Shown here one piece after another: positions 7,626 to 57,546 of a DNA stretch of 64,000 nucleotides (its first letter is position 1; each line of letters opens with the position of its first letter). The notes under the pieces are model-generated. The model was not told the origin of the DNA, made no database searches, and worked only from the letters and a program-made list of their open reading frames with translations. Position numbers and translations under genes: made by a program. The stretch is from an uncultured Candidatus Binatia bacterium (lineage in GTDB: Bacteria > Desulfobacterota > Binatia > UBA9968 > JAJDTQ01): NCBI GenBank assembly GCA_965242525.1, contig OZ251459.1, positions 3,456,001 through 3,520,000 of the forward strand, read 5' to 3'.

Positions 7626-7715
7626 TCGAGCACCGAGACTTCGCTCGATCCACTCAATCTTCCTTGCCCGATTCCACTTCCTGACCGCCTTTCCTCTCTG
7701 GATAGCGCTTTCCAT
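7617..7715 (-). pseudogene. C-terminal remnant of a small GIY-YIG nuclease
   Basis: MESAIQRGKAVRKWNRARKIEWIE resembles the AIxREKxIKxWxRxWKIxLIE tail of small stand-alone GIY-YIG proteins; abuts REP-B. Confidence 0.7.
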
Positions 7716-7977
7716 GGAGATGGATTCCCGCTTTCGCGGGAATGACGGAGGTGGGCGGGCGCGGGAATGACCGGGGGTGAGCGCCTGCGGAATGATGGTG
7801 GGGCGTCCGCAACGCCAAACCGAGGTTCGAGAACTCCCGAAACTTGTCCTGCTAGCGCTTTCCATGGAGATGGATTCCCGCTTTCGCGGGAATGACGGGG
7901 GGTGAGCGCCTGCGGAATGATGGTGGGGCGTCTGCGACGCCAAACCGAGGTTCGAGAACTCCCGAAACTTGTCCTGC
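7703..7977 (-). repeat. Tandem duplicated REP-B unit
   Basis: GGATTCCCGCTTTCGCGGGAATGACG at 7722-7747 and 7872-7897, each followed by near-identical ...GAGGTTCGAGAACTCCCGAAACTTGTCCTGC. Confidence 0.9.
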
Positions 7978-12322: not shown

Positions 12323-12332
12323 GGAAGCTCCC

Positions 12333-13154: not shown

Positions 13155-13173
13155 CAAAGGTGGCTCTTCCGAC

Positions 13174-13404
13174 TTTCGTGTGGGTAAGGAAGGAAAGGGA
13201 AGCGACATCTCCGCGGACGCTCACCCGTCATTCCCGCGAAAGCGGGAATCCATCCGCTTTCCTCGCTCTCGTTGTACAAACCCTCATACATGGCACCCAC
13301 GGGGTTTGTTTGCTCGCAAGGTCTGGATTCCCGCTTTCGCGGGAATGACGAGGCGAGGCTTTCGCGGGGATGACGGGATGGGGAGTGTCGCAACCCACAC
13401 GAAT
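13174..13404. repeat. REP-B inverted doublet (13226-13251 / 13325-13350) inside outer inverted motif D
   Basis: Two opposed REP-B with a 73-bp spacer, an extra half-REP, and outer TTTCGTGTGGGT / ACCCACACGAAT. Confidence 0.88.
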
Positions 13405-13444
13405 TCCTGAAGCGCCGCAAAGGTCTCGGAGCCGGCGCCGTTCG

Positions 13445-14615: not shown

Positions 14616-14689
14616 CTGTTCCTCCTTTCCGGCGCTGCGGAACGGTTCGCCAACCTCTCCTCTTCCTCCTCTACGGAACCTCGCAACGC

Positions 14690-15394: not shown

Positions 15395-15398
15395 AGAG

Positions 15399-16036: not shown

Positions 16037-16045
16037 TGGCTGGTT

Positions 16046-16074
16046 CTAGTAACATGCGGGCCTCCGCGGGTCAA
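16046..16074 (-). promoter_or_regulatory. sigma70-type promoter of the atp F0 operon
   Basis: TTGACC-N17-TACTAG on the minus strand. Confidence 0.5.
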
Positions 16075-16203
16075 CGCCTGCGGGCATGGAGTCACTGCGC
16101 CAAGCCTTCCGCACGGCCCTTCCCCGGGCGTCGAGAAGAGCGCGGGGAGGCCTTCGGACATACTTTCCGGGTCTTCCGGCTTTCGTGTGGGTCAACGACC
16201 CCG

Positions 16204-17502
16204 TCAGCGGGAGCCTTCCCCCTCGGCCCAGTCGGCGAACGCCGCCGCGGTGGCGGCGATGTCCTCCTCGCTGTGGGCCAACGACAGGAACAGCGCCTCG
16301 AACTGCGACGGCGGCAGATAGACGCCTCGCTCCAGCATGCCATGGAAGAAGCGCGCAAAGCGCTCCCGGTCGCAACCCCGGGCGTGGTCGGCCCGGGCCA
16401 CCCGATCGGGGCCGAAGAACACCGTCAGCATGGAGCCTACGCGGTTCACCGTGCCCCGAAGGCCGGAGGAGGAGAACCCCGCCTCGAGCCCCTCCTCCAG
16501 CAGCCGCCCCTTCTCTTCCAGCTCCCGGTACGCCCCCGGCGCCTCCAACGCCTTCAGGGTGGCCAAGCCCGCGGCCACCGTCACCGGGTTCCCGGAAAGG
16601 GTGCCGGCCTGGTAAACCGGGCCCGCGGGCGCGAGGCAGCCCATGAGATCGCGCCGGCCGCCGAAGGCGCCCACCGGCAGCCCGCCCCCCAGGACCTTGC
16701 CCAGGCAGGTGAGGTCCGGGGTCACGCCGTACCGTTCCCGGGCTCCGCCCGGGGCCACGCGAAAACCGGTGATCACCTCGTCGAAGATCAGCACCGCGCC
16801 CCAGCGGGACGCCGACTCCCTCAAGGACTCGAGGAACCCGGGCTCCGGCGGGATCACGCCCATGTTGCCGCACACGGGCTCGACGATGACCGCGGCCAGC
16901 TCTTCGCGGTGCTCCCGCATCAGGCGCTCGGCGGAGCCCGCGTCGTTGAACTCGGCGACCAGGGTCTCGCCGGTGAAGCTCTCCGGGACTCCGGCGCTGT
17001 CCGGCAGGGACAGGCTGGCCACCCCCGATCCGGCCCTGGCCAGCAGCGCGTCCACGTGCCCGTGGTAGCAACCGTCGAACTTCAGCACCTTGGTCCTGCC
17101 TGTGTAGCCGCGCGCGACCCGCAGGGCGCTCATGGCGGCCTCGGTGCCCGAGTTGACCAGGCGCAGTTGCTCGATCCCCTCCATGCGCGCACCCACGAGC
17201 TCCGCCAACTCCAGCTCCCCCCTGGTCGGGGCGCCGAACCCGGCGCCCGCGGACGCGGCGCGGACGACGGCTTCCACCACGGGCGGAGGCGCGTGGCCCA
17301 GGATCAGCGGCCCCCAGGCGCACACGTAGTCCAGGTACCGGCGGCCGTCCTCGTCGAAGACCTTCGAGCCCGCCGCGCGCGCGATGTACAGGGGCTCGCC
17401 GCCCACCGCGCTCCATGCCCGAACCGGGCTGTTGACCCCTCCCGGCACGACCCGCCGGGAGCGCTCGAACAGCCCGGACGAAACCGAGTCAGCGCGGCCC
17501 AT
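16204..17502 (-). CDS. hemL: Glutamate-1-semialdehyde 2,1-aminomutase
   Basis: PGGVNSPVR, NSGTEA, YHGH, FDEVITGFR, LGKVLGGG, YQAGTLSGNP. Confidence 0.97.
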   Translation of the reverse strand: MGRADSVSSGLFERSRRVVPGGVNSPVRAWSAVGGEPLYIARAAGSKVFDEDGRRYLDYVCAWGPLILGHAPPPVVEAVVRAASAGAGFGAPTRGELELAELVGARMEGIEQLRLVNSGTEAAMSALRVARGYTGRTKVLKFDGCYHGHVDALLARAGSGVASLSLPDSAGVPESFTGETLVAEFNDAGSAERLMREHREELAAVIVEPVCGNMGVIPPEPGFLESLRESASRWGAVLIFDEVITGFRVAPGGARERYGVTPDLTCLGKVLGGGLPVGAFGGRRDLMGCLAPAGPVYQAGTLSGNPVTVAAGLATLKALEAPGAYRELEEKGRLLEEGLEAGFSSSGLRGTVNRVGSMLTVFFGPDRVARADHARGCDRERFARFFHGMLERGVYLPPSQFEALFLSLAHSEEDIAATAAAFADWAEGEGSR

Positions 17503-17755
17503 GACGCCTCCCGAAACGAGCCTCCGTCCGGTCCCGCGGGGCCTGCCCACCGCCCCGGCCACCGCTCCCCGACCCGCCGCCGATGCGGAACCTGTCGAGT
17601 TCCTTACGGAAAATCCGGGCGGCTCTTTTCCTCTTGCAATGCAGGAGAGAAAGCATTAAGAGAACTCCCTTCCCGGCGTCCCGAGTTGGTTCCGAAACAC
17701 ACTTTGGCGACAGGCTTGATCCGTATCGAAGCGAGGTCCCCGGGCCGGTTCGAGG

Positions 17756-17787
17756 TTATCCACATCTGTTGACAGGATTGTTGATAA
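17756..17787. promoter_or_regulatory. DnaA boxes upstream of dnaA
   Basis: Perfect TTATCCACA 17756-17764; TGTTGATAA 17779-17787; weaker TGTTGACAG between. Confidence 0.85.
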
Positions 17788-17806
17788 CTGCCTCTTGCGC
17801 AAGCAC

Positions 17807-19141
17807 ATGGACACGATGAACCCGCTACCGCACGAGGTGCTGGAAAGGCTGGAGGAAAGGCTCGGCTTACACAATTTCGGCACCTGGATCAAACCGCTGC
17901 GGCTTGCCGGAGCCGACAACGGAGAGGTCACCATCGCGGTCCCCAGCACCCTCTTCCGCGACTGGCTCAAGGACAACTACCTGGACTGCATCGAGGAAGA
18001 GTTCCGCCGCCTTTCCGAACGGCCCGTGCGCGTCAAGCTGTCGGTCCGCCCGTCGCAGCGTCCCGGAAAAGGCGAAGGGGAGGCTCCCAACCCCGCCCGG
18101 AGACCGCGCCAGCGCGAACCGCGGACGACCCTGATCCCGCGCTACACCTTCGACAACTTCGTGGTGGGCGCGAGCAACCAGTTCGCCCACGCAGCCTGCG
18201 AGGCCGTCGCCGACAACCCCGCGGACCGCTACAACCCGCTCTTCGTCTATGGCGGCGTCGGCCTGGGCAAGACCCACCTGGTGAACGCGGTGGGGCACCG
18301 GCTGCTCCATCGAAACCCGCGCCAGAAGGTCATCTACACGACGTTCGAGTCGTTCATGAACCAGCTCATCGTCTCCGTGCGCGAGAACCGCATGAACGAG
18401 TTCAAGAACCACTTCCGCAACGTGGACGTGCTGATCGTGGACGACATCCAGTTCATCGCCGGCAAGGAACGGACCCAGGAGGAGTTCTTCCATACCTTCA
18501 ACTCCCTCTACGAGAACCGCAAGCAGATCATCGTGACGTCGGACCGTTTCCCCAAGGAGATCCCCGGTCTGGAGGACCGCCTCCGAAACCGCTTCGAGTG
18601 GGGTCTCGCCGCGGACATCCAGCCGCCGGACATCGAGACCCGGCTCGCCATACTGTGCAACAAGGCCGAGGCCGAAGCCATCGACCTGCCCCAGGACGTG
18701 GCCAACTTCCTGGCCACCAACATCTGGTCGAACATCCGGGAACTGGAAGGCGCCCTCACCCGCCTCGGGGCTTTCGCCTCGCTGAACAACGCCGACATCA
18801 CCATTTCCCTGGCCAAGGAGGTGCTGCGGCATACGCTCAGGGACAACGAGAAACAGATCACCGTGCGGAACATCCAGAACGTGGCCGCGGACCATTTCGA
18901 CGTCAAGGTGGGCGACCTCAAGTCCAAGCGACGCCCCAAGAACCTGGTCCTTGCCCGCCAAGTGGCCATGTACCTCTGCCGCAAGTTCACCTCGACTTCC
19001 TTTCCCGCCATCGGCGCCGAGTTCGGCGGCAGGGACCATTCGACGGTCATCCACGCAACCAAGGCCGTCGAGAAGAAGCTCCTGGGCGACTCCGAACTGA
19101 AGTCCACCGTGGACCGGATCGTGCGCCAACTCAAGAACTGA
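17807..19141 (+). CDS. dnaA: Chromosomal replication initiator DnaA
   Basis: YTFDNFVVG, YGGVGLGKTH, DDIQF, QEEFFHTFN, GGRDHSTV. Confidence 0.99.
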   Translation: MDTMNPLPHEVLERLEERLGLHNFGTWIKPLRLAGADNGEVTIAVPSTLFRDWLKDNYLDCIEEEFRRLSERPVRVKLSVRPSQRPGKGEGEAPNPARRPRQREPRTTLIPRYTFDNFVVGASNQFAHAACEAVADNPADRYNPLFVYGGVGLGKTHLVNAVGHRLLHRNPRQKVIYTTFESFMNQLIVSVRENRMNEFKNHFRNVDVLIVDDIQFIAGKERTQEEFFHTFNSLYENRKQIIVTSDRFPKEIPGLEDRLRNRFEWGLAADIQPPDIETRLAILCNKAEAEAIDLPQDVANFLATNIWSNIRELEGALTRLGAFASLNNADITISLAKEVLRHTLRDNEKQITVRNIQNVAADHFDVKVGDLKSKRRPKNLVLARQVAMYLCRKFTSTSFPAIGAEFGGRDHSTVIHATKAVEKKLLGDSELKSTVDRIVRQLKN

Positions 19142-19330
19142 GTGGAAACCGCTGTGGGAAAACCGGGAAGCCTGTGGACATGCCGAGGGTTCCGCCGGGG
19201 GTCCGGCCGGCCAACGTGGAACACCGGGCGTTGCCGCGATTTGTTTTCCACCGAAAAGGTGTTTTAATGCCGGAGGGTTTCGAAGCCTATCCTGATATCC
19301 ACAGGCCCTACTATTACTCCTGTCTTCCTA
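19142..19330. promoter_or_regulatory. Probable oriC: DnaA-box cluster, GC motif and DnaA-trios
   Basis: Degenerate boxes (TGTGGGAAA, TGTGGACAT, TTTTCCACC); ATATCCACA 19295-19303 + GGCCC + TACTATTACT. Confidence 0.85.
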
Positions 19331-19376
19331 TGGATTCCCATGGAAGAGGATAGGGCCGCGTGATCCGGGAGGATAC

Positions 19377-20483
19377 ATGCACATCAAAGCCAAGCGGGAA
19401 GATTTGTCGGGCGCGTTGTACTGGACCCAGAGCACGGTGGAGCGGCGCAACACCATGCCGATCCTGGCCAACGTGCTGGTGGAGACCCACGCGAACCGGA
19501 TCCGGCTGACCGCAACGGACCTGGAGGTGGGGGTCCGGGCCGCCCTCGACGGGGAGATCGTCACCTCGGGCCGCATCACGTTGGACGCAAAGAAGCTCTA
19601 CGAGATCGTCCGCGAGCTGTCGGGCGACGCCATCGAATTGAAGCGACTGGAGAACGACCGGGTGGAGATCCAGTGCGGCAAGTCCGTGTTCAAGATGGTG
19701 GGGCTCGACGCCCAGGACTTCCCGGCCTTCGCCGCCATCCCCCAGGACGGGAAGAAGGAATGCCCGGCCCACGTCCTGAAGGAGATGATCGACAAGACCC
19801 TGTTCTCCATCTCCTCGGACGAGACCCGCTCCAACCTGAACGGCGCGCTGCTGCACGACCGCGAGGAGGCCCAGGTCCGGATGGTCACCACGGACGGCCA
19901 CCGGCTGTCGCTGGTGGAGAGGGAGATCGGACCGCTGGGCCTCGCCAAGGGAGTGATCATTCCGAGGAAGGGGCTGACCGAACTCAGGAGACTGCTGGAG
20001 GATTCGGGCGAAGACAGGGTCTCCATGGGTTTCTCCGACAACATGGCGTTCGTGTGGAGGGGCGACGTGGAGATGTCCATCCGGCTCATCGACGGGGAGT
20101 TTCCCGACTACGCGAGGGTCATACCGGCCGACAGCGCCAGCGAGGCCAACGTCTCCCAGAACAACTTCTTCCGCGCGTTGCGGCGGGTGGCGCTCCTGGC
20201 CAGCGACCGGTACCGCGGGGTGCGGGTGGAGTTCACCAGCGGGAACTTGGCCATCTCGGCCAACAACCCGGACCTGGGCGAGGCGGCCGAGGAAATGGAC
20301 GCGGAGTACGGCGGGGCGCGCATCTCCATCGGCTACAACGCCCAGTACCTGCTGGACGTCCTGGGCGTCCTGGAACCGGAGGACGTGGTGGTGATGGGCC
20401 TCAAGAACGACGAGAGCCCGACGCTGGTGAAGCGCAGCGGCGACGACAGGCTCCTGTACGTGGTGATGCCCATGAAGATCTGA
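19377..20483 (+). CDS. dnaN: DNA polymerase III beta clamp
   Basis: MPILANVL, ATDLE, TTDGHRL, LIDGEFPDY, VVMPMK. Confidence 0.98.
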   Translation: MHIKAKREDLSGALYWTQSTVERRNTMPILANVLVETHANRIRLTATDLEVGVRAALDGEIVTSGRITLDAKKLYEIVRELSGDAIELKRLENDRVEIQCGKSVFKMVGLDAQDFPAFAAIPQDGKKECPAHVLKEMIDKTLFSISSDETRSNLNGALLHDREEAQVRMVTTDGHRLSLVEREIGPLGLAKGVIIPRKGLTELRRLLEDSGEDRVSMGFSDNMAFVWRGDVEMSIRLIDGEFPDYARVIPADSASEANVSQNNFFRALRRVALLASDRYRGVRVEFTSGNLAISANNPDLGEAAEEMDAEYGGARISIGYNAQYLLDVLGVLEPEDVVVMGLKNDESPTLVKRSGDDRLLYVVMPMKI

Positions 20484-20557
20484 CCGGGGCTCCCTCGCGT
20501 CCGAACCGGAAAGACGCGCCGGTCAGGAAAGAATCGCCCGGAACCATCCCTGTTGCC

Positions 20558-21064
20558 ATGGCGGAGACGGCCCACGCCAAGAGGAGCCTCGAGTCGGTGT
20601 CCTGCTTCGTGGTCACGGTGAGCGACACCCGCGACCGGGCCTCGGACCGGAGCGGCGCCCTCATCCAGCGGCTGCTGGAGGAGAACGGCCACAGGGTGGC
20701 GGGCTACGAGATCGTCAGGGACGAGCCCGAAGACATCCGCGCCCTGCTGCGGAAGGCCTTGGCCGCGGAAGCGGTGGACGCGGTGCTGTTGAACGGCGGC
20801 ACCGGCATCGCGCCCAGGGACGGGACCTACGAGGTCGTCAGCGGCGTGCTGGACAAGCGCATCGAGGGGTTCGGGGAGCTGTTCCGTTTCCTGAGCTACC
20901 AGGACATCGGCGCCGGGGCCATGCTGAGCCGGGCCGTGGCCGGGGCCGCGGGCTCCCGGGTGGTGGTGTCGCTGCCGGGGTCGCGGGGTGCGGTGGAGCT
21001 GGCCATGACCAAGCTCCTGCTGCCGCAGTTGGGCCACATGGTCGCCCAGGTCCGGGGGCTATGA
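20558..21064 (+). CDS. moaB: Molybdenum cofactor biosynthesis protein MoaB/MogA family
   Basis: VTVSDTR..DRSG, GGTGIAPRDGT, GFGELFR, SLPGS. Confidence 0.9.
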   Translation: MAETAHAKRSLESVSCFVVTVSDTRDRASDRSGALIQRLLEENGHRVAGYEIVRDEPEDIRALLRKALAAEAVDAVLLNGGTGIAPRDGTYEVVSGVLDKRIEGFGELFRFLSYQDIGAGAMLSRAVAGAAGSRVVVSLPGSRGAVELAMTKLLLPQLGHMVAQVRGL

Positions 21065-21306
21065 GGGTCCGGGTCAAGCTCTTCGCCATGCTGCGGGAAC
21101 GGGCCGGGGCCGCGGACGCGGTCCACGACGTCCCCGAGGGCAGCACCGTGGACGACCTGTGGGACCGGCTCCTGCGGGACCACCAGAGACTCTCCGGCGT
21201 CGAGTGGACGCTCCTCTACGCGGTCAACGGCGAATACGTGGAGCGGCATCGGCGGCTGGCGGAGGGCGACGAGGTGGCGTTCATCCCGCCGGTGAGCGGA
21301 GGGTAG
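21061..21306 (+). CDS. moaD: Molybdopterin synthase sulfur carrier
   Basis: VKLFAMLRE, C-terminal PPVSGG. Confidence 0.93.
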   Translation: MRVRVKLFAMLRERAGAADAVHDVPEGSTVDDLWDRLLRDHQRLSGVEWTLLYAVNGEYVERHRRLAEGDEVAFIPPVSGG

Positions 21307-21310
21307 CCCG

Positions 21311-21793
21311 GTGTACCGGCTTACGGACCAACCCATCGACGTGCAGGAGTTGACCGCCTTCGTGGGCGACCCCGAGGCCGGCGCGGTGGCCACGTTCATC
21401 GGCGCCACCCGGGACCACAACGAAGGCCGGTCCGTGGTGTCCCTGGACTACGAGGCCTACCCCGGCATGGCCGAGCGGGAGATGGCCCGGCTCGGGGCCG
21501 AGGCCGGCGCCAAGTGGCGGATCACCCGCATCGCCATGGTCCACCGCATCGGCAACGTGCCCATCGGCGAGGCCAGCGTGGCCATCGCGGTGTCGGCGCC
21601 GCACCGGGACGACGCGTTCCGGGCGTGCCGGTACGCCATCGACGAGTTGAAGAAGCGCGTGCCCATCTGGAAGAAGGAGATCTACCGGGGCGGCGAGGTC
21701 TGGATCGGCACCCAGACCGGCCGGCGCTTCACCGACGCGGACCGCATGGGCTCCGAAGACCAAGGCCGACGAGCAGGAAGGTCATCGCAATGA
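21311..21793 (+). CDS. moaE: Molybdopterin synthase catalytic subunit
   Basis: GAVATFIG, YEAY, HRIG, PIWKKE. Confidence 0.95.
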   Translation: MYRLTDQPIDVQELTAFVGDPEAGAVATFIGATRDHNEGRSVVSLDYEAYPGMAEREMARLGAEAGAKWRITRIAMVHRIGNVPIGEASVAIAVSAPHRDDAFRACRYAIDELKKRVPIWKKEIYRGGEVWIGTQTGRRFTDADRMGSEDQGRRAGRSSQ

Positions 21794-21879
21794 TCATCGC
21801 CGCAATCATACTCATCGTTCTTTTGGCGCTGGCTATCTGGTTCGTGGGAGATTGGGATGAAGATGAAGATGGAGATTGA
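21790..21879 (+). CDS. Putative 29-aa single-pass membrane protein
   Basis: MIIAAIILIVLLALAIWFVGDWDEDEDGD; ATGA overlap with moaE stop, AGGAAGG upstream. Confidence 0.55.
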   Translation: MIIAAIILIVLLALAIWFVGDWDEDEDGD

Positions 21880-21912
21880 GCTTCCGGCGGCTTCGCGCCG
21901 GCGGCTGGCCGA

Positions 21913-22650
21913 CTACCGGCCGTCCTCCATGCGGAAGACGGCCTGGGCCGGCAGGTTCTCCAGGAGGCAGTCCACGGCGCCGTCGAGGTAGCCGCGGTCC
22001 TTGGACTCCACCGTGACCCGCACCTTGTAGTCCGGGTTGTCCAGCACCGGATAGGAGCCCAGCAGGATCTCGGGGAACCGTTCCAGCACGTGGTTGAGGG
22101 TCGCGGCGATGACGCCCTCGCCGTCCCTGACGTAGATGTTCCTCAGGTGGAACGGGGCCTCGCGGAAGCGCTCCTTGATGGCGTGGAAGCGTTCCTGGAG
22201 GATCCGCGGCACGCCGGCGAAGACGTAAACGTTCCGGAGCCGGATGACCGGAGCGAACAGCGCCCCGCCGCCCAGGAGCTCGGCGCCCTCCGGAACCATG
22301 GCCATGCGCAGCCGCGCCGGGTTGATGTCGGCGCCGTACCTCTCTGCCAGCCGCCGACGGAGTTGCGGGTGGATGACCGCGGGGGTCCCGAACCCCTGGG
22401 CGATGCCTTCGATGGTGACGTCGTCGTGGGTGGGGCCCACGCCGCCGGTGGTGAACACCAGGTCCCACTTGTCCGAGTAGCGCGCCGCGGTCCGCCCGAT
22501 CAGCTCGCGCTCGTCCGGTATCACTGTGACCCGTTGCACGTCCACGCCGAGGAGCCGCAACTCGCGGCAAAGGAAGGTCGAGTTGATGTCCTGGGTCTTT
22601 CCCGACAGGACCTCGTTGCCGATGATGATGATGCCCGCGGTCTTCGACAT
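21913..22650 (-). CDS. CinA N-terminal-like molybdopterin-binding domain protein
   Basis: IIIGNEVLSG..DIN, TGGVGPTHDDVT, GSYP. Confidence 0.88.
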   Translation of the reverse strand: MSKTAGIIIIGNEVLSGKTQDINSTFLCRELRLLGVDVQRVTVIPDERELIGRTAARYSDKWDLVFTTGGVGPTHDDVTIEGIAQGFGTPAVIHPQLRRRLAERYGADINPARLRMAMVPEGAELLGGGALFAPVIRLRNVYVFAGVPRILQERFHAIKERFREAPFHLRNIYVRDGEGVIAATLNHVLERFPEILLGSYPVLDNPDYKVRVTVESKDRGYLDGAVDCLLENLPAQAVFRMEDGR

Positions 22651-22721
22651 GGCGCAGACCATAACATGAGACGACGCCGGCCGGCAAAGAAGCGTTGGAT
22701 TGGCAGGGAGGGTCTGGACGG

Positions 22722-23462
22722 ATGAACGGGACGGAGAAGTTCCTGATCGACGTGGCGTATCCGTACTGGGAGACCGAGGCCGAGATCGCCCGGCGGTTCT
22801 TCCGGGGCAACCCCACCCGGGAGCAGCACATCTACTGGCTCAAGGCCCAGCTATGGAAGGAGCTGCACCCGGTGGACGGTTACTTCAGCGGCCTCCACCG
22901 GGAGCTGGCGAACCTCGTGGACCTGTTCCCGGAAGTCGATCGGACCGTCGATCGGCGTCACTACCACGGGCTCATGGAGCAGTTGGTGCAGGAGTTCAAC
23001 CACTACGTGCTCCAGGCCGACATCCTGGAGTACCTCCTCCGCCGCAAGATCGGCTCGGACGACACCGTCCGGTTGCCCCAGGAGAAGGCCCTCGGCGACC
23101 TCCGCCGCAGCCTGGTTTCCGGCTCCGCGGCGGAGAAGGCCGCGGTGCTGGTGACCGAAGGGGGAGGGGCGAGGCTCTTCCGCGAGGGCCGCAAGCTCAA
23201 GGGCGGCGTGCTCGAGCGCAAGATCGCTGCGGCCATGGAGGTCATCTACCGGGACGAGAAGAACCACTACCGGGCGGCGGCCCGGGAGGCCGCGGCCTCG
23301 GTGGGCGGCCGAGGCGACCTCCGGGTGATGAAGCGGGCCATCGAGCGGGTCAGCCTCCAGCGAGTCCACATGAGGAACGAGATGTTCCTGTTCCCGTTGT
23401 CGGGAGCGGACATCCGCCGGGGCCTGGAACGGTTCCGCCGAGTCGAAGGGACCGGGCCATAA
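22722..23462 (+). CDS. Hypothetical protein, ferritin-like diiron candidate
   Basis: Host-like codon use; two ExxH motifs (QEFNH, DEKNH) plus KE and TEGGG. Confidence 0.6.
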   Translation: MNGTEKFLIDVAYPYWETEAEIARRFFRGNPTREQHIYWLKAQLWKELHPVDGYFSGLHRELANLVDLFPEVDRTVDRRHYHGLMEQLVQEFNHYVLQADILEYLLRRKIGSDDTVRLPQEKALGDLRRSLVSGSAAEKAAVLVTEGGGARLFREGRKLKGGVLERKIAAAMEVIYRDEKNHYRAAAREAAASVGGRGDLRVMKRAIERVSLQRVHMRNEMFLFPLSGADIRRGLERFRRVEGTGP

Positions 23463-23520
23463 GCGCTCCCTTCGACTTCGCTACGCTCGGGACGAACGGG
23501 GACGATGGTTCAGGGTTTCC
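23462..23520 (-). repeat. Degenerate REP-A with one MITE end
   Basis: CCTTCGACTTCGCTACGCTCGGGACGAACGGGG..GGTTCAGGGTTTCC. Confidence 0.8.
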
Positions 23521-23588
23521 GGAAGTCCAACCGGAAAGGGACCCCACTGCACGGCTCGCAGCAGGTTCCTGCATGCCCGGACAGGCTT

Positions 23589-24389
23589 CTAGGGCCTGCC
23601 GGTCTGGTGGGGCCTGGGGCCGACGCAGACCCCGCGGCGGGACGAGCGGATGAAGTCCAGCAGCGCCCGGATGTCCCCGGAGGAGTCGGACAGGGTCGCT
23701 TCGAGCTCCTTTACCGCGGCGCCCAGGTTCCGCCTCTTGCGGAAGAGGATCTGGAAGGCGTTCTTCAGGACCCGTATCCTGGCCTCGTCGAAACCGGCCC
23801 GGCGCAGGCCCACGACGTTCAGCCCGCGCACCGTGTGCTGCCAGTCGATGATGGAGAACGGGGGAACGTCCCGGCTGGTGACGCTGCCGCCGCGCATGAG
23901 GGCCACCCGTCCGATGCGGACGAACTGGTGCACCGCGCAACTCGCCGAGATGACGGCGCAGTCGTCCACCTCCACGTAGCCGCCCAGCACCGCGTTGTTG
24001 GTCAGGATGACGCGGTTGCCCAGACGGCAGTTGTGAGCCACGTGGGAGTTGGCCATCAGGAAGTTGTCGTCGCCGATGACCGTGGCCGAATCGGGCGCGG
24101 TGCCCCGGTGGACCTGGACCCCTTCGCGGAAGACGTTGCGGTGGCCGATCCGAAGGTAGGACTTGGCGCCCCCATAGGACAGGTCCTGGGGCGCGTCGCC
24201 CAGAACCGCGCCACTGTGCACCCGGTTCCGTTCGCCCACCTCGGTCCAGCCCATGACGATGGCGTGGGGCATGAGCCGCGTCCCGGCGCCGATCCTGGCC
24301 GGACCGTCCACCACCGCATAGGGTCCCAACTCGGCGTCGGGATGGATTTCGGCCCGTGGGTCCACCACGGCTGTAGGATGGATCGGCAT
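23589..24389 (-). CDS. lpxA: Acyl-ACP--UDP-N-acetylglucosamine O-acyltransferase
   Basis: IHPTAVV, PQDL, HRGT, HVAHNC, VHQF, GLNVVGLRR. Confidence 0.92.
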   Translation of the reverse strand: MPIHPTAVVDPRAEIHPDAELGPYAVVDGPARIGAGTRLMPHAIVMGWTEVGERNRVHSGAVLGDAPQDLSYGGAKSYLRIGHRNVFREGVQVHRGTAPDSATVIGDDNFLMANSHVAHNCRLGNRVILTNNAVLGGYVEVDDCAVISASCAVHQFVRIGRVALMRGGSVTSRDVPPFSIIDWQHTVRGLNVVGLRRAGFDEARIRVLKNAFQILFRKRRNLGAAVKELEATLSDSSGDIRALLDFIRSSRRGVCVGPRPHQTGRP

Positions 24390-24401
24390 GGACGCCTTGC
24401 G

Positions 24402-24590
24402 TCATCGACGGTCGGGTTCGTCGATGGGCTGCGACTCCTCTTCCGGTTCGTCGCCGGCGATGCGGTACGTCCCCTCCGCCCAGGCGCCGAGGTCGAGGTA
24501 TCGACAACGCTCCGAACAGAAGGGCCGGTGGGGGTTGTCGGCCCAGGGGGCGTCAGCGCGGCAGACGGGGCACTTGACCAGGGTCGGCAT
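24402..24590 (-). CDS. yacG: DNA gyrase inhibitor YacG
   Basis: VKCPVC..RPFCSERC..DLGAWA..YRI. Confidence 0.93.
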   Translation of the reverse strand: MPTLVKCPVCRADAPWADNPHRPFCSERCRYLDLGAWAEGTYRIAGDEPEEESQPIDEPDRR

Positions 24591-24749
24591 TCTGTAACGG
24601 GCCGCGGGGGTGGATCGCGTTGCCGCGGCTCCCAGTATCGTGTAGCCTCTCCCTTTTGAGTAACAGTTCGACCACGGTTTTTCAAAACCTTCGCGGCAAG
24701 GAAGGGGGGTCGAGGGCGCGGGCCGGCGAAGGCACGGAGCAGCAAGGCC

Positions 24750-25667
24750 ATGAGCGACCGGTTGCCGATAATCATCCTGGCCGGCGGCAACGATCAACTG
24801 GAGACCATACCCGGGGGACTCACGGACCGGGACATGCTGCGCGGGTTCAAGGGAGCGGTGCCGCTGCCGTCCGGGCGCTGCATCGCCGGCGAGCTGGTCC
24901 AGCGGGTACGCGAGAGCGAGCGGTTCACGGAGCCCGTGCTGGTGGGGCCGCGGCGGGTTTACCGCGGCTTGGTGGACTGCGAGATAGCGGACACCAGCGG
25001 CGACCTCCTGGCCACCGTCACCACCTTGACCGGCCTGCTCACCGAGCGCTACCCGGAGCGGCCCGTGGCCGTTTCCGCCTGCGACATCCTTCCCACCGCG
25101 GCGGACTTCCGCACGTTGCTGGACCAGTCGTACGCGCCCCATGCCGACAGCGGGCTGTGGTGGCAGATGGTCGCCGCGGAGCCCGCGGAGATGGGGGTCA
25201 GTAGGTGGAAGCCCAGCTACCGCTTGCGGCCTTCCCCCGGCGGGCCGTTGCTCAACCTGTATCCCGGCCACCTGCTGATCCTCCGGCCCTGCGCGGTCCG
25301 CTTGGACTGGTTCAACCTGTTCCTGATGCTGGCCTACCGCTACCGCAACCGCAGCATCTACGAGCGCATGATCCGGATCACCCTCCGGGCCGTGGGCCTG
25401 TGGCTGGCGGAGGACTGGAGCCGGGCCGCCTCCTTCCAGCGGCCCGGGCGCACGCTCGCGGCCCCCTACGGCATCTTCCGCACCTACCTCAAGTACTGCC
25501 TGCAACGGCTCACGGTTCCCGAACTCGCTGACGAGCTGGGCCGGCAGGTCATGGCGCCCGACCGCTTGCCGGGGGTGGAGCATCCCGTGGCCATGGCGGT
25601 CACCCGGATACGGTCCTTCGCCAAGGACATCGACACGCAACAGGAGTTGGCGGAAATCGCGGGTTGA
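24750..25667 (+). CDS. Hypothetical protein, MobA-like nucleotidyltransferase fold candidate
   Basis: IIILAGG..KG at N-terminus, ACDI, C-terminal DIDT. Confidence 0.55.
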   Translation: MSDRLPIIILAGGNDQLETIPGGLTDRDMLRGFKGAVPLPSGRCIAGELVQRVRESERFTEPVLVGPRRVYRGLVDCEIADTSGDLLATVTTLTGLLTERYPERPVAVSACDILPTAADFRTLLDQSYAPHADSGLWWQMVAAEPAEMGVSRWKPSYRLRPSPGGPLLNLYPGHLLILRPCAVRLDWFNLFLMLAYRYRNRSIYERMIRITLRAVGLWLAEDWSRAASFQRPGRTLAAPYGIFRTYLKYCLQRLTVPELADELGRQVMAPDRLPGVEHPVAMAVTRIRSFAKDIDTQQELAEIAG

Positions 25668-25760
25668 CCGGCGCTTCCGTACCCCGCTTCCCGGCTCCTT
25701 CGCCCGCAGGCAGCAAGCCGGCCGGCGTTGCGGACGCCCCCACCCCGTCATTCCCGCAAA

Positions 25761-25865
25761 GGAAACTCTGAACGATTATCCCCGTTCGTCCTGAGCGTAG
25801 CGAAGTCGGAGGACGCGCTTTCCTGCAGGGAGAGGATGTCCAAGCCGGAATCGTTCAGGGTTTCC
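25761..25865 (+). mobile_element. MITE with REP-A inserted in a half REP-B, CAAA target duplication
   Basis: GGAAACTCTGAACGATT / AATCGTTCAGGGTTTCC; CAAA at 25757-25760 and 25866-25869. Confidence 0.9.
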
Positions 25866-25954
25866 CAAAGCCCACCCACGTAGAAGCCTACCCTGTCATT
25901 CGAAGATTCAAAGCCCATTCCGTCATTCCCGCGAAAGCGGGAATCCAGACGGAC

Positions 25955-26011
25955 CATGGCACTCTGTATGTCGGTGTCACGTCGAATTCCGTTCCGCGGA
26001 TCTGGCAAAAG
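25955..26011 (+). pseudogene. N-terminal remnant of a GIY-YIG nuclease
   Basis: Translates HGTLYVGVTSNSVPRIWQK (YIG-box region, GTLYxGVTSxLxxRIWQHK type). Confidence 0.8.
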
Positions 26012-26019
26012 CGAGCGAA

Positions 26020-26095
26020 GGAAGGTCTGATCAATGAGCGCGTCCTTCGACTTCGCTACGCTCAGGATGAACGGGGATAATCGTTCAGAGTTTCC
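26020..26095 (-). mobile_element. Minimal 76-bp MITE with REP-A
   Basis: GGAAGGTCTGATCAAT / ATCGTTCAGAGTTTCC; flanks CGAA / TGAA. Confidence 0.82.
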
Positions 26096-26135
26096 TGAAG
26101 TGAGTGGATTCCCGCTTTCGCGGGAATGACGGAGT

Positions 26136-26223
26136 GAAGGCGTCCGCGGGGGGTCAAGGAGAGGACGCTGCGGAGGGTTGAAGGCGTCCGCAAGGGGGCT
26201 AGGAGGGGACGCTGCAGAGGGTC
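26136..26223. repeat. Two tandem ~44-bp hairpin units
   Basis: TGAAGGCGTCCGC..GGACGCTGC.GAGGGT twice; derived from the REP-B flank GCGGACGCCTTCAC. Confidence 0.7.
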
Positions 26224-26319
26224 AGGGAGGGGAGCCGCACAGGGAGGGGACGCCGCAACCGGATGGATGGCGCCGCATGGAACGGGCGCTGAGGGAACTC
26301 CTGGCGAAGGTCCGGGCTT

Positions 26320-27051
26320 CTATTCGGTGACCCCGGCGAGCCACTCGTCGAAGAACTGCGGCCCGTGGCGCTCCAGTGCGGGCGCGAACCGGGAGGTGGA
26401 GTTGCGGAGTTGCGCCACCGAGACGCCCGGGGTGGTCTCGATCTCCAGGGCGTGGCCGATGAACCACCGTTCGAGTCCGTCCGAGGTCGCTTCCGGGTGG
26501 AACTGGAGGGCGAGGGTGTGTCCGTCCCAGAGGAACGCCTGGTTCTCGCACGCGGGGGTCGAGGCCAGGAGGGCCGCGCCCCGGGGCAGGTCGAAGGTGT
26601 CCCCGTGCCAGTGGAGCACCTGCGTCCGGTCGGGCGCCAGGTGGCGCAGGGGGGAGGCGCTGCCGGCCTCGGTCAGGGACAGGGGGCTCCAGCCGATCTC
26701 CTTGCCCCCGGCGCCGAACACCCGGTAGCCCAGGGCACGGGCCATGAGCTGGGCGCCCAGGCAGATGCCCAGGGACGGCCGCCCGCGGGCGAGCCGGCGC
26801 TCCAGCAATCGGACCTCGTCGGCGAGGAAGGGGTACTGCCGTTCGTCGGCTGCGCTGATGGGGCCGCCGAGCACCATGAGCAGGTCCGCGCCCGCGGCGT
26901 CCGCCTGGTCCAGGCGGTCCGTTCCCGCCTCCAGGTACTCGATCCGGTAACCGGCGCGGATGAGGGGCGCGGCAAACGATCCCAGGTCCTCGAAAGCCAC
27001 GTGCCGGATTACCACGGCGCGCCTGTGCAGGGCGGAATCGGTATCGACCAT
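26320..27051 (-). CDS. Class I glutamine amidotransferase
   Basis: RHVAFEDLG, GICLGAQ, WHGDTF, QFHPE. Confidence 0.92.
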   Translation of the reverse strand: MVDTDSALHRRAVVIRHVAFEDLGSFAAPLIRAGYRIEYLEAGTDRLDQADAAGADLLMVLGGPISAADERQYPFLADEVRLLERRLARGRPSLGICLGAQLMARALGYRVFGAGGKEIGWSPLSLTEAGSASPLRHLAPDRTQVLHWHGDTFDLPRGAALLASTPACENQAFLWDGHTLALQFHPEATSDGLERWFIGHALEIETTPGVSVAQLRNSTSRFAPALERHGPQFFDEWLAGVTE

Positions 27052-27079: not shown

Positions 27080-27184
27080 GGAAAACTCTGACCAATCGAG
27101 CCGTGGGCGAGGGCATTCCCTCGCGTGACCCTTCCATCCCCGTTCGTCCTGAGCGTAGCGAAGCGGAGTCGAAGGACGCGCTCC
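27080..27184 (+). mobile_element. Truncated MITE with REP-A
   Basis: GGAAAACTCTGACCAATCGAG left end, REP-A core, right end missing. Confidence 0.78.
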
Positions 27185-41698: not shown

Positions 41699-42209
41699 GT
41701 ACAGGACCTTTCTACAAGAGCTTGCCGTTCGACCCTGCCCTGCGGTCAAGCAGCATCCCGGTCGCGTGTGCTTCTTCCATGCCGTCACCATAACAGAAAT
41801 CGTCGTCTGCATCACCGGAGGCATGACGGCAGTCCGGCGCATGCCGCCATCCCCAGTGACGGGAGCGGCAGGAGCACCGGCCGATGCCGCCCGGTGGCCT
41901 TCGGTGACGGCCTTGGAGTCTCCCTGTTGCCAAGTCCCTCGGATACCGTGCCACCTCGCCTCACATCCGGTTGACCCTGCGTTCTCCAGGCCGCGGCGAC
42001 GCCTGCGGTTGACGGTCGAGGGTCACGGTGGTAAAGTCCATCCCTGTGTATGGCTTGGCACCGGCCTCTCGACGTTACCGTGGCGTGTTACGGCTACTCG
42101 AAACGGTGTTCTTCTCGGTGCGCCGTCACGGACTATCGGAAGAGGCCCTACGCCCGACCAATCGGGGCACGTTCCACGGCGACGCTGCTCGCCCTCTGGA
42201 GGGCCGAAC

Positions 42210-42644
42210 ATGCGACACATACTTGACACCACGGAGTTGCTTGTCGCCAGTTGGATACTGGCAGGCGACGACGACCGGGACGATCGGATACCTACCTCAC
42301 ATGGCATCCTGGATCGGGCGCTCAAGACCGCTTTGGAGCAAGAGGCATTCCCGCCCTGGGTCCGCGATCATCTCCACTTCGTGGATTCCCGGGTCGGACT
42401 CCAATGCGTAGAGTTGCCCGAGCTACTGGATTGGGCGCAACGGGCACAGATCACGACGGCGCCGAACCCTTCCTATCAATCGGCCCAGGTACAGATCAGT
42501 GGCAAGGCGGCTCGACGGATACTGTCGGACCTCGAAGTTACGGAGGATGACGCCATCAAGTGGGGCAAACTCCTTCGGGATGCCGTATCCGAAGCGAACC
42601 GTGCGATAAACGCCTGGCCCGAGTCGGCCATCGAAGATCACTGA
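42210..42644 (+). CDS. Hypothetical protein (144 aa)
   Basis: GGAGGG upstream of ATG, intermediate GC, no recognised motif. Confidence 0.6.
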   Translation: MRHILDTTELLVASWILAGDDDRDDRIPTSHGILDRALKTALEQEAFPPWVRDHLHFVDSRVGLQCVELPELLDWAQRAQITTAPNPSYQSAQVQISGKAARRILSDLEVTEDDAIKWGKLLRDAVSEANRAINAWPESAIEDH

Positions 42645-42701
42645 TCCAACGCTTACTCGCGGGACCCCGTATCGCCCGGCCGGAATACGGTGGACGGGAG
42701 G

Positions 42702-42960
42702 GAGACTTGCCCGGCGTTTCAGGATTTCGTGTGGGTTGTGCACTCCCTCCCATGCGAATTCCCGCGAAAGCCCCACCTCGTCATTCCCGCGAAAGCGGGA
42801 ATCCACTTTACCAGATCCGCGGAACGGGATTCGACGTGACACCGACATACATGGCGCCATGTGGTTTGCCCACAAGGATGGAAACACAGAGAGTTTTCAT
42901 AAGAATCTGTGGATTCCCGCTTTCGCGGGAATGACGGTGGTGGGCGGCCGCGGGAATGAC
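42702..42960. repeat. REP-B inverted doublet (42779-42804 / 42911-42936) with motif-D flank
   Basis: Opposed REP-B, 106-bp spacer, half-REPs on both sides; 42702-42753 resembles the reverse complement of 13378-13428. Confidence 0.9.
42808..42900 (-). pseudogene. N-terminal remnant of a GIY-YIG nuclease
   Basis: MKTLCVSILVGKPHGAMYVGVTSNPVPRIW* follows the MKxxxVYILASxxxGTLYVGVTSxLxxRIW pattern. Confidence 0.8.
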
Positions 42961-43127
42961 AGCCTGACCCCTGTCGCTCTACTTTTCCCTCCTACCCTGC
43001 CCAGACAAAAGCCGGAAGAGCCATTCATGGCAGGCCAGACGCTACAGCCTGTCCCTGTGCTCTCGAGTCCAAGTTGTCGTCGTCGGATATCGCCCAACCG
43101 ACGAGGCAGGTCTTCTCCCGTTGCCGA

Positions 43128-43952
43128 GTCGTAAACCAGCTTGGACGTGGAGGTGTTGTTGCACACCACGATGAAGCACGGCGGAACCCCGATGTCGGCT
43201 TCCCGCCAGAGACGAAATACCTTCTCGTAGTGGCCGTAGAGGGCGTCCAGCGCGGTCAACAGTTCGGCAGGCAGGCTCAGAGGGTCCAGGGTCTTCGCCT
43301 TGCCGCGCCCCCTCCTGGGCATCTTCCCCCGGATGTGCTCCCACAGGTTGCGGAGCTTGGGCATGTCCTCGCCCGGCACGTTGTCCGCCACCGGCACCCG
43401 GGGAATCTTGCCGGCGCCCGTGGCCAGCTTGAGGGCGAGCCGCTGCAACTCCGGGTTGGCGTCGTCGTTGGCGCCGGCCAAGTGGTCGAGAAACCCCCTG
43501 CCGGTCTCGCCCGCGTTCGGCGCTACCTCGGTGAGCCAGATGGCGGTCTCCACCGCTTCGACCTGGCAGAAGAACGGACGGACGTCGCTGAATCGGTGGC
43601 TCCGCCAGTGCCGGAGCAGACGGGCGGTCTCCGGCGTCACCTGCCACCGGCCCGGGTCCGCGATGCTGCACCACCGGTCCACCTGCCGACGAACGGAGTC
43701 GATGAGGGCCGTGTGCTCGTACCGCTGCCGCTCGGTGGAAAGGCCCCGGCCTTCGTTGAACAGGACCGAGGTCCGCTCCTCCGCCTTTCCCCTTCGCTTC
43801 CTGGGCTTCGGGACGGGCGTGATGAACTGGGCGGGCCTTCGGCTTTCGACGAAATTCTGGGTGGGCTGCCCGGTCTCGTCCAGCTCCCAATGGCGCGTCG
43901 GGTACTCGTAAGGCGAGTTGAGCACGGGCCGGTCGAAGAACGGATTGGTCAA
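43128..43952 (-). pseudogene. res: Type III restriction (Res) subunit, internally deleted and truncated
   Basis: PVLNSPYEYP.RHW, PFFCQVEAVET; Walker A ATGAGK joins directly to PRVPVADN; no DEAH box; homology ends after STSKLVYD. Confidence 0.82.
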
Positions 43953-47758: not shown

Positions 47759-48570
47759 GCCGAGGACGGACCGGGACGCTCTTCGACCCTCCCGATGGAG
47801 GACGCACGCCTTCGGGAAGGAAGAGCCCCGACGGTGCGGCCACGTCGGACCTGGTGTTCTCCGTCTATGTCGGAAACAACGCCGACGTCTTCCCGCACGT
47901 GTTGAAGCTCCACGTGGCGGCCGGGGCCAAGATCGCGGACGTGACGTATGGCAAGGGAGTCTTCTGGAAGAAGGTGGACACCGGTGAGTACCAATTCTTT
48001 CCCTCCGACATTGCGGACGGAGTGGACTGTCGGCATCTGCCATACGAGGACGCGTCGTTCGACGCCGTCGTCTTCGATCCGCCCTACATGGAGGGGTTCT
48101 ACCGGAACGGCGGCTCGGTCAAGGCCGGCGACGGCACCCACAACGCGTTCCGTGACCACTATTCCAACGGCGACGAGACTCCCAGGGCCGACGGAGGCAA
48201 GTGGCACGCGGCCGTCCTGGAGATCTACCTCGAAGGCGGCAGGGAGGCGCACCGGATACTGAGGGACGGCGGGTCGTTCATCGTCAAATGCCAGGACGAG
48301 GTCAGCGCAAACAGGCAGAACCTGACGCACGTGGAGATCATCCATTCATTCGCAGAGGTCGGCTTCTTCTGCAAGGATCTGTTCGTGCTGGTACGTCCCA
48401 ACAAACCCGGAATGAGCCGGGTCATCCATCAGGTGCACGCGAGAAAGAACCACTCCTGTTTCCTGGTCTTCGTCAAGATCCCGCAAGGCAAGGGTCGCGG
48501 ACGCCGACGTCCGTCCTTCCCGCTAAATCCTACTCCGGAAACTCTGAACAATTGTCCCCGTTCGTCCTGA
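47755..48570 (+). CDS. Orphan DNA amino-methyltransferase
   Basis: [11 protein letters not shown] (motif I-like), FDPPY (motif IV), IVKCQD; ATGA overlap with the RHH gene. Confidence 0.82.
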
Positions 48571-48647
48571 GCGTAGCGAAGCGAAGTCGAAGGACGCGCT
48601 TTCCCGCAGGGAGAGGGAGTTTCAAGCCGGAATTGATCAGACGTTCC
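48537..48647 (+). mobile_element. MITE with REP-A, CTCC target duplication
   Basis: GGAAACTCTGAACAATT / AATTGATCAGACGTTCC; CTCC at 48533-48536 and 48648-48651. Confidence 0.9.
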
Positions 48648-48650: not shown

Positions 48651-48676
48651 CGTCATTCCCGCGAAAGCGGGAATCC
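48651..48676 (+). repeat. Solo REP-B
   Basis: CGTCATTCCCGCGAAAGCGGGAATCC. Confidence 0.92.
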
Positions 48677-57249: not shown

Positions 57250-57444
57250 CGGGCGCGGGACGCGCGTCCCGCCACAGCCAGTTCGGTCCATCTCGTCACG
57301 ACGGGGCGCAGGGTCGGTCGCCCCTCGCATGACCGCAAGCCGCGGGGCGTCCGCGTCCCGCGGCCCGGTTCCACCCTTCCGCGGCGTGGACGGCTCCACG
57401 CGCGCCGTCCCATCTTGACATCGGTTTCCGGTCAACCTTATATG

Positions 57445-57546
57445 GGAACCTCTGGACGATCGAGACATGCTAGGAGGGATGCCCCCATCCCGGCATTCCT
57501 GTCCCCGTTCGTCCCGAGCGCAGCGAAGCGGAGTCGAAGGACGCTC
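57445..57546 (+). mobile_element. Truncated MITE with REP-A
   Basis: GGAACCTCTGGACGATCGAGACAT left end plus REP-A; right end missing. Confidence 0.8.

Follow-up and report, generated by a model that had tools for sequence, protein, structure and literature searches.

Hairpin doublets of a Binatia genome as decayed copies of an Ssn-type nuclease cassette carried in an ISL3-type MITE

Introduction

Most head-to-head hairpin doublets in the genome of an uncultured Candidatus Binatia bacterium, and about a third of its single hairpins, are internally deleted and decayed copies of a cassette in which a small GIY-YIG nuclease gene lies between two inverted 26-bp palindromes. One intact cassette survives and, like at least 39 of the 56 doublets, sits inside an ISL3-type MITE. 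We regard it as likely that an Ssn/NTS cassette was captured by this MITE, multiplied by ISL3 transposition and decayed by internal deletion, its hairpins being kept. The core association of hairpin and nuclease is already published (Chenal et al., Nat Commun 2025; PMC11893778); the additions made here are the ISL3 vehicle, an invariance confined to the hairpins, and sister genomes that are rich in hairpins and in which no nuclease gene of this type was found.

The doublets came to notice in a 64,000-nucleotide stretch of DNA, here called the window. A preliminary description of this stretch had taken the palindromes for REPs with fossils of a GIY-YIG gene between them and had proposed a candidate new GIY-YIG/REP mobile system. 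Since that link, including the analogy to insertion sequences and RAYT, had been published by Chenal et al. (PMC11893778), the system is not a new candidate; the doublet ancestry that was proposed is nonetheless right for this genome.

SsnA of Neisseria meningitidis, as reported by Chenal et al. (PMC11893778), is a 94-aa single-domain GIY-YIG nuclease of the Ssn family (CDD model cd10448) that binds its target, the NTS (defined as CGTCATTCCCGCGMAVGCGGGAATCYRG), as ssDNA only and cuts a few nucleotides upstream, in one strand orientation only; the substitutions Y6A, Y17A and E64A abolish cutting. The same report presents Ssn enzymes as the first case of site-specific nucleases whose cutting is confined to ssDNA, finds a degenerate motif on both sides of 42% of ssn homologs and a homolog in 81% of the genomes that exceed 200 motifs, and likens the NTS-ssnA-NTS layout to an insertion sequence and to a REP/RAYT pair; its Discussion leaves open how the hairpin targets reach hundreds of copies. 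Earlier, Di Nocera, De Gregorio and Rocco (BMC Genomics 2013; PMC3733652) had catalogued the CGTC-1 REP family, mostly head-to-head dimers “apparently lacking a dedicated transposase”, and their article notes that in other species CGTC REP dimers can sit within small palindromes. Literature searches that joined GIY-YIG to repetitive extragenic palindromic sequences found nothing under those terms; paired with REPIN, GIY-YIG returned nothing on REPINs by title or abstract opening, mostly restriction enzymes; paired with miniature inverted repeats, nothing bacterial; and SsnA with GIY-YIG, from 2025, only the Chenal paper.

The hairpin and its copies

The 26-mer CGTCATTCCCGCGAAAGCGGGAATCC occurs nine times in the 64-kb window with 0 mismatches, just as the preliminary description had counted, and in none of 100 shuffles of the window. 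The exact copies start at 7722, 7872, 13226, 13325, 25921, 26106, 42779, 42911 and 48651. The main contig (C1) of this genome (G000) holds 215 exact copies and 236 with at most four mismatches; of the inexact ones, 17 differ at one position, 3 at two and 1 at three. As ssDNA the 26-mer is predicted to form an 8-bp stem with a 4-nt GAAA loop, leaving CGTC and CC unpaired, at -9 kcal/mol (z -3.97). Copies on C1 less than 600 bp apart form 56 convergent pairs (plus then minus; 74-353 bp), and close pairs of other orientation number 5 divergent and 7 same-strand; a further 124 hairpins outside doublets are single.

The 26-bp palindromes are CGTC-1-type REPs and, at the same time, the NTS or “Ssn-related motif”. 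They share with the CGTC-1 family, as set out in the 2013 article (PMC3733652), the CGTC head, the 8-bp stem starting with AT, the 4-nt loop, the CCA tail, a mostly head-to-head dimeric arrangement, dimers that may be placed in small palindromes, and no known transposase of their own, and they match the NTS consensus at 27 of 28 positions; copies in which the next bases are AG match at 28 of 28, as read by eye. They differ from that family in that their dimer spacers are traceable to ssn, whereas the text of the 2013 article knew no associated protein (PMC3733652). The features of the window are as follows.

7641..7747, minus strand: single NTS (7722-7747) fused directly to ssn codons 57-82 (tblastn E 1e-5)
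13162..13416, no strand assigned: complete ISL3-type MITE with a 125-bp NTS doublet (13226-13350), defined by a TIR pair and a target duplication
25921..26131, no strand assigned: NTS doublet, 211 bp long, that contains an ssn remnant (25955-26014, plus strand; tblastn E 2e-5)
42713..42736, plus strand: left 24-bp ISL3-type terminal inverted repeat (TIR) of the MITE around the focal doublet (TIR pair G000:C1:3498713-3499022)
42779..42804, plus strand: NTS / CGTC-1 REP, left arm of the focal doublet (exact 26-mer; fold; NTS consensus 27/28)
42808..42900, minus strand: ssn remnant, codons 1-30 then a stop (translation, tblastn, blastn)
42911..42936, minus strand: NTS, right arm of the focal doublet (exact 26-mer)
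42999..43022, minus strand: right ISL3-type TIR, diverged (pair 3498713-3499022)
48651..48676, plus strand: single NTS hairpin (exact 26-mer)

An intact nuclease cassette

The preliminary description had predicted an intact REP>GIY-YIG<REP unit, and a six-frame Pfam search of the genome located one at G000:C1:3303650-3304002, where an intact GIY-YIG gene of 104 aa lies between two inverted exact 26-mers, the hairpin encoding the end of the gene, its stop and the eight codons before it.

C1:3303650-3303675, plus strand: first flanking hairpin
C1:3303655-3303966, minus strand: intact ssn coding region
C1:3303977-3304002, minus strand: second flanking hairpin

The protein matches PF01541 over residues 5-77 of 104 (E 1.5e-15); its only other Pfam match, T5orf172 (PF10544, E 0.028), falls below the cut-off and covers the same stretch. 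Among five orthologs Y7, Y18, R28 and E65 are invariant, and Y7, Y18 and E65 correspond, by position alone, to the inactivating Y6A, Y17A and E64A mutants of SsnA (PMC11893778). The resident system thus resembles Ssn/NTS in its hairpin, in a small single-domain GIY-YIG protein (~95-104 aa) whose presumed catalytic Tyr, Tyr and Glu match by position, in cognate hairpins that face inward on both sides of the gene, and in hundreds of hairpin copies. By analogy with its Neisseria relative, the protein most likely cuts ssDNA just 5′ of CGTC. The system differs in that the nuclease gene survives in decayed form between most of the paired hairpins here, that the cassette rides in an ISL3-type MITE, that the hairpin supplies the end of the gene, and that it is known from sequence alone. 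A homing endonuclease of the I-TevI type, which would cut dsDNA of alleles that lack the intron or gene, was considered and set aside, the protein being single-domain with no separate DNA-binding domain. NCBIfam gave no family for either small GIY-YIG protein, and a PDB sequence search with the protein gave no Ssn structure and only weak UPF0213 matches (1zg2, E 0.048; 1ywl, E 0.11); its top row, a WD-40 repeat, is spurious, and the UPF0213 and SLX1 matches stand at E>0.04.

Spacers as gene fossils

In 51 of the 56 doublets at least 20 nt of spacer align, by sensitive blastn, to the cassette interior of the 353-bp intact unit, hereafter the master. Most doublets keep both cassette ends and lack a middle piece, and outside the hairpins they are about 67-95%, roughly 80%, identical to the master; a cassette match also lies in the inner flank of 38 of the 124 single hairpins. 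When residues 1-96, a query that leaves out the hairpin-encoded tail, were run against the genome by tblastn, 27 HSPs were obtained at E<=0.01, every one of them no more than 200 bp from a hairpin, in a zone that takes up at most 2.3% of the chromosome; 20 shuffled protein queries gave 0 matches each. One deletion form of ~121 bp is represented by 13 aligned copies that have the same two deletion junctions at 13 different sites; given these common junctions, the copies must have multiplied after the deletion. The series of fossils between hairpins appears not to be described in the main text of Chenal et al. (PMC11893778), from which the words pseudogene, remnant and dimer are absent.

The focal doublet illustrates how such a fossil is built. 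Its hairpins face inward, and it consists of master positions 225-353 joined to 1-31, so that the gene remnant lacks cassette positions 32-224; the blastn match to master 225-353 has 87.6% identity over 129 nt (E 1.6e-38). The minus strand of window 42808-42900 translates to MKTLCVSILVGKPHGAMYVGVTSNPVPRIW followed by a stop, and whole-genome tblastn matches 42811-42900 to residues 1-30 of the intact protein (73% identity, E 4e-10). Elsewhere in the window, 25955-26014 matches residues 14-33 (80%, E 2e-5) and 7641-7718 matches residues 57-82 (69%, E 1e-5), a partial tandem duplicate of the 7641..7747 unit carrying the second NTS of that locus at 7872-7897. The fragment at 13280-13320 is too decayed for a protein match and is recognisable at the DNA level as part of the ~121-bp class of the cassette, to which the doublet 13226-13350 belongs.

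What the preliminary description had observed in the window is borne out, and its interpretation in part. Three of the four GIY-YIG pieces that it placed beside palindromes match the intact protein by tblastn, and the fourth is found in DNA only; the doublets are deleted derivatives of the cassette (51/56), such derivatives did spread (the ~121-bp form), and the remnants are commoner near hairpins than elsewhere (27/27 HSPs, 0 in 20 shuffles). The PF01541 check that it proposed gives a match for the intact protein and no Pfam match for the short window fragments (0/3), which are too short.

An outer element of ISL3 type

When the ~121-bp doublets are aligned together with their flanks, a longer repeat emerges that ends in inverted 24-mers (GGC(G/T)CTTC..TTCGTGTGGGT). 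Sixty such TIR pairs were found, 50 of which enclose at least one hairpin; the remaining 10, of 111-171 bp, are hairpin-free copies of the same MITE. Their 8-bp flanks are identical at 8/8 positions in 9/60 pairs and at 7/8 in 7/60, and among 2000 mismatched pairs used as a control 2 reached >=7/8; only 16 of the 60 pairs keep >=7/8 of the target duplication. Doublet-bearing pairs with a perfect duplication include those at

C1:1764976
C1:2531837
C1:3372192
C1:3469162 (window 13162-13416)

and in the last of these the octamer GCAAAGGT stands at both 13154-13161 and 13417-13424. The focal doublet lies in a TIR pair whose target duplication is not preserved (2/8 matches), and the master cassette inside a 798-bp pair (C1:3303429-3304226) with 3/8.

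Members of the ISL3 family (ISfinder) have ends of the GGCTCTT type and produce an 8-bp target duplication, and elements derived from insertion sequences are familiar, as in ISfinder/ISsaga, as MITEs or mobile insertion cassettes. A DDE_Tnp_ISL3 remnant (E 8e-32) lies within the TIR pair at C1:2328572-2329256, and ORFs beside a TIR at C1:~3895000 match Zn_ribbon_ISL3, HTH_Tnp_ISL3 and DDE_Tnp_ISL3, the stretch C1:~3894787-3895810 being a TIR-bounded, broken ISL3 copy. From the ISL3 ends, the target duplications, the transposase remnants and the hairpin-free copies it follows that the outer element is an ISL3-family MITE and the nuclease cassette its cargo. Like other IS-derived MITEs, it has inverted ends in common with ISL3 transposase remnants and an 8-bp target duplication, carries a passenger in place of a transposase, and has left many deletion derivatives; it differs in that the passenger is a suspected selfish hairpin/nuclease cassette and that G000 has no intact partner transposase. 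All five ISL3 transposase matches in G000 are partial or broken, and among 28 genomes of the genus a full-length ISL3 transposase was found only in G016, whose element has related but different ends.

Within 400 bp, 27 of the 56 doublets have both ISL3 ends, 12 have one and 17 have none, a diverged end having escaped the search in at least one of those 17; the 211-bp doublet at 25921..26131 is among those with no ISL3 end detected over this distance, and 72 of the 124 single hairpins likewise lack one. In other phyla the 11-mer ISL3 core, even with one mismatch allowed, was found at 2 of the 80 best-matching cassettes, about the chance level, and ISL3 is therefore not the general vehicle.

Hairpin invariance and the genus

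Pairwise identity among the 13 aligned ~121-bp copies is 100% and 99.4% in the two hairpins, 87.1% in the spacer and 82.6% in the TIR, in agreement with the earlier claim that the REPs stayed invariant while the gene decayed. Drift at the rate of the spacer would alter most 26-mers; the hairpin must hence be held by sequence-specific selection or conversion.

The motif is present in 16 of 18 sampled genomes of the genus, at up to 458 copies with at most one mismatch, and only 4 of the 18 yielded a homolog of the master protein. In two single-contig complete genomes, G012 and G003, 285 of 339 and 121 of 179 hairpins, respectively, are exact; no ssn of the master type was found in either, only a different, YhbQ-like small GIY-YIG gene. 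In the gene-bearing G017 and G015 the exact fractions are 166/590 and 87/390, and this comparison gives no support to the idea that hairpin exactness tracks the presence of ssn. The genomes in which no cognate gene was found include some with 179 to 512 hairpins (<=3 mismatches). Tight hairpin conservation in sister species in which the nuclease gene was not found sharpens the question of how the hairpins are maintained and spread.

The ssn orthologs of G017 and G015 occupy one syntenic site behind the same gene, and their hairpins are confined to the downstream side. A different hairpin of the CGTC type, with the stem ACCCCGGC, flanks the G014 ortholog, as fits the co-variation of protein and motif reported by Chenal et al. 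(PMC11893778). All 20 sampled doublets of G017 and G015 are ~100 bp long with short G- or C-rich spacers that, judged by eye, are unrelated to the gene; an ISL3 core was found within 400 bp of 0/20, and copy-specific palindromes (>=7 nt) surround 11/20. In G000, inverted complementarity beyond the hairpins amounts to 5.4/12 matches against 5.5 in the control. The origin of doublets as gene fossils is accordingly not general: in these two sister species the spacers appear unrelated to the gene.

Relatives in other phyla

A relative of the protein is encoded at 557 of the 580 candidate loci, and most relatives are 95 aa long. Relatives at 60-79% protein identity occur, by their record labels, in Dehalococcoidia, Gammaproteobacteria, Binatia, Spirochaetia, Planctomycetota, Nitrospinota, cyanobacteria and others. 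Among the best 80, 24 are bracketed by this hairpin (<=3 mismatches), again facing inward from either side; 34 have it on one side and 22 on neither.

How the doublets multiplied

One intact NTS>ssn<NTS cassette is retained in the genome, and the hairpins are held invariant by a sequence-specific constraint. We posit that in this lineage an ISL3-family MITE took up the cassette as cargo, forming a “mobile insertion cassette”, and multiplied mainly through an ISL3 transposase acting in trans, with gene decay afterwards. An ISL3-type MITE with 8-bp target duplications offers an ordinary DDE-transposon route for the spread of the doublets; much of that spread in this genome is accounted for by such a transposon, which probably placed many of the copies. 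We infer that ISL3 transposition, and not the nuclease, was the main multiplier here. The preliminary description had implicated the GIY-YIG enzyme in mobility; the cassette ancestry of the doublets stands, but their mobilisation by the nuclease is not supported by these results, and an ISL3-type MITE surrounds at least 39 of 56. The head-to-head REP dimers of the 2013 catalogue can thus arise by decay of a nuclease cassette that has multiplied as a unit, and such a cassette can travel as a passenger of an ordinary DDE transposon. Several observations run counter to the ISL3 reading: the end-less doublets (17/56) and single hairpins (72/124), the broken transposases, the few pairs that keep a target duplication, and the multiplication of doublets without ISL3 in the sister species (0/20).

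An alternative that we consider possible, though clearly the less likely one, is that the Ssn nuclease itself mobilises the hairpins by nicking ssDNA upstream of them, whereupon host repair or replication would copy the cassette and the gene-less doublets in a REPIN- or homing-like manner, with ISL3 as an occasional vehicle; the hypothesis is raised in the Discussion of Chenal et al. (PMC11893778). It would account for the recurrence of the cassette layout across many phyla at 60-79% protein identity, for the sister-species doublets without ISL3 ends (0/20), 11/20 of which sit in small palindromes, the type of target expected of single-strand mechanisms, and for the finding of no RAYT in G000. 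It also draws on a polar footprint: a half-hairpin unit lies within 45 nt upstream of 127/236 hairpins in G000 but downstream of only 6/236, starting 24-27 nt upstream in 118 cases, and in other phyla the corresponding figures are 24 upstream versus 9 downstream of 101. Yet GIY-YIG enzymes hydrolyse DNA, and none is known to rejoin strands; there are hairpin-rich genomes (179 to 512 copies) in which no cognate gene was found, and the best-preserved insertions of G000 carry ISL3 target duplications. Moreover, since SsnA cuts the motif strand in one orientation only, an inward-facing pair would be cut once on each strand and not at both ends. Taken further, NTS and Ssn could constitute a self-propagating ssDNA element, the first REPIN-like system run by a GIY-YIG hydrolase, with the capture by ISL3 a side-show; cuts upstream of the hairpin on transient ssDNA would trigger copying, plant doublets in the centres of palindromes and leave polar tandem half-hairpin units upstream, and invariance, even where the gene is missing, would reflect continual re-seeding or conversion. 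This bolder version is to us a tentative idea with a modest chance of being right. The ISL3 and nuclease routes are not mutually exclusive.

We think it improbable that the hairpins are host-domesticated sites without present mobility, serving, for instance, to restrict incoming ssDNA through Ssn as in Neisseria, to terminate transcription or to stabilise mRNA, with the doublets as inert relics kept only for their hairpins. The invariance of the hairpins against a 13-17% drift of their neighbourhood does imply selection or conversion on the hairpin alone, and the single syntenic place of ssn in G017 and G015 is what a resident host gene would show; but a deletion class at 13 sites and 8-bp target duplications demonstrate transposition, selection per site spread over about 230 sites would be very weak, and the single hairpins show no replication-strand bias (66 vs 58, p 0.53), a split to be read against a poorly defined skew profile, the extremes of cumulative GC skew being merely 1.2 Mb apart, which leaves origin and terminus uncertain. 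Least credible of all, to the point of being very nearly dismissed, is the spread of these REPs by a RAYT (an IS200/IS605-type Y1 transposase) in the manner of classical REPINs. REPINs and RAYT transposases, reportedly described by Nunvar in 2010 and by Bertels and Rainey in 2011, share with the present system paired inverted hairpins at high copy number and a gene that is present in one copy between such repeats, and this analogy alone speaks for a RAYT. The enzyme here, however, is a GIY-YIG hydrolase rather than an HUH/Y1 transposase, and the head is CGTC, not GTAG. The preliminary description had named a RAYT as the competing explanation; PF01797 gave 0 matches at E<=10 in G000, which is 98.96% complete, and was positive in control genomes.

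Surroundings of the window loci

In four public runs compared with window 7000-26999, the short-read contigs all stop at repeats (X1 ends at 13135 and resumes at 13419), no displayed piece spans an element, and the joints in these contigs are cross-mapping of other repeat copies. Public sponge metagenome runs contain relatives with which about half of the sampled 31-mers are shared. In a comparison of the surroundings of the focal doublet (window 41900-43800) with 27 other species genomes of the genus, no empty site was recognisable, the coding DNA being 73-88% identical and the left flank non-syntenic.

Half-hairpin units on the outer side of the hairpin

Throughout the main contig of this genome (G000:C1), hairpins are accompanied by a tandem "half-hairpin" unit, composed of CGTCATTCCCGC followed by ~13 C-rich nucleotides, which lies just upstream of the hairpin and on its outer side only. 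A unit is present within 45 nt upstream of 127 of the 236 hairpins, starting 24–27 nt upstream in 118 of these, and only six hairpins have one downstream. At loci from other phyla, the unit was counted upstream in 24 of 101 cases vs nine downstream. These units could arise by slippage at the hairpin, or they could be the footprint of cutting just upstream of it.

Examples of half-hairpin units
Window 42737–42778: half-hairpin units
Window 42937–42960: half-hairpin units
Loci L044, L053, L067, and L080 (cassettes of relatives): half-hairpin units

The nuclease cassette across phyla and hairpin doublets in sister species

The GIY-YIG nuclease shows 60–79% identity in records whose labels span many phyla (L044–L123), and in one of these records, a Dehalococcoidia MAG (L044), the gene (77% identity) is bordered on both sides by the identical 26-mer; together, these sequence comparisons suggest frequent horizontal transfer of the cassette. 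Two sister species, G017 and G015, contain hairpin doublets of ~100 bp with G-rich/C-rich spacers (L124–L143, n = 20), in which no nuclease remnant was discerned by eye and none of which (0/20) has ISL3 ends. Eleven of the 20 lie inside palindromes (≥7 nt) that differ from copy to copy, an arrangement resembling the palindromic targets described by Di Nocera 2013 (PMC3733652).

A second small GIY-YIG gene and its possible partner hairpin repeat

In the sister genomes G009 and G003, inverted copies of another abundant hairpin repeat, GTTCGTCCTGAGCGTAGCG..CGAAGTCGAAGGACG (family D1 in the window), bracket a further small GIY-YIG gene of YhbQ-like type; in G012, the stretch examined shows solely the upstream copy. 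The G000 counterpart has become a pseudogene: it contains two TAG stops, and a single copy of this hairpin repeat lies upstream. The YhbQ-like gene and this repeat appear to constitute a second pairing of nuclease and hairpin in the genus.

Second hairpin repeat and YhbQ-like gene
Window 547–631, 2037–2121, 48537–48621, and six more: second hairpin repeat
G000:C1 3870142–3870351: YhbQ-like GIY-YIG pseudogene
L034–L036: the corresponding sister loci

Arrangement of hairpins and other repeats

Unlike the usual inward-facing pairs, five hairpins at G000:C1 37220–37478 form a same-strand tandem array with a period of 58–59 bp. Three of the 13 aligned doublets of ~121 bp carry an interior that is inverted relative to the two different MITE arms; recombination between the inverted hairpins would yield such flipped interiors.

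Doublets (~121 bp) with flipped interior
G000:C1 677642–677917
G000:C1 1108112–1108394
G000:C1 2063423–2063712

At window 7703–7982, a hairpin and the junction linking it to the nuclease remnant are present twice as the result of a local tandem duplication (families D7 and D13; period 125–150 bp, 95% identity over 98 nt).

On the 4.15-Mb contig G000:C1, just 1.2 Mb separates the maximum of the cumulative GC skew (1.15 Mb) from its minimum (2.36 Mb), reflecting either weak skew or a chromosome that is rearranged or misassembled.

Another dispersed family in the window, GGGAACCTCTGAACAATCGAGACATCC..., is frequently fused to the other repeats, some copies being joined to the ISL3-type end.

Copies of the GGGAACCTCTGAACAATCGAGACATCC repeat
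Window 311–350, 3982–4021, 4918–4957, 5910–5949, 9017–9056, 27080–27119, 57444–57483
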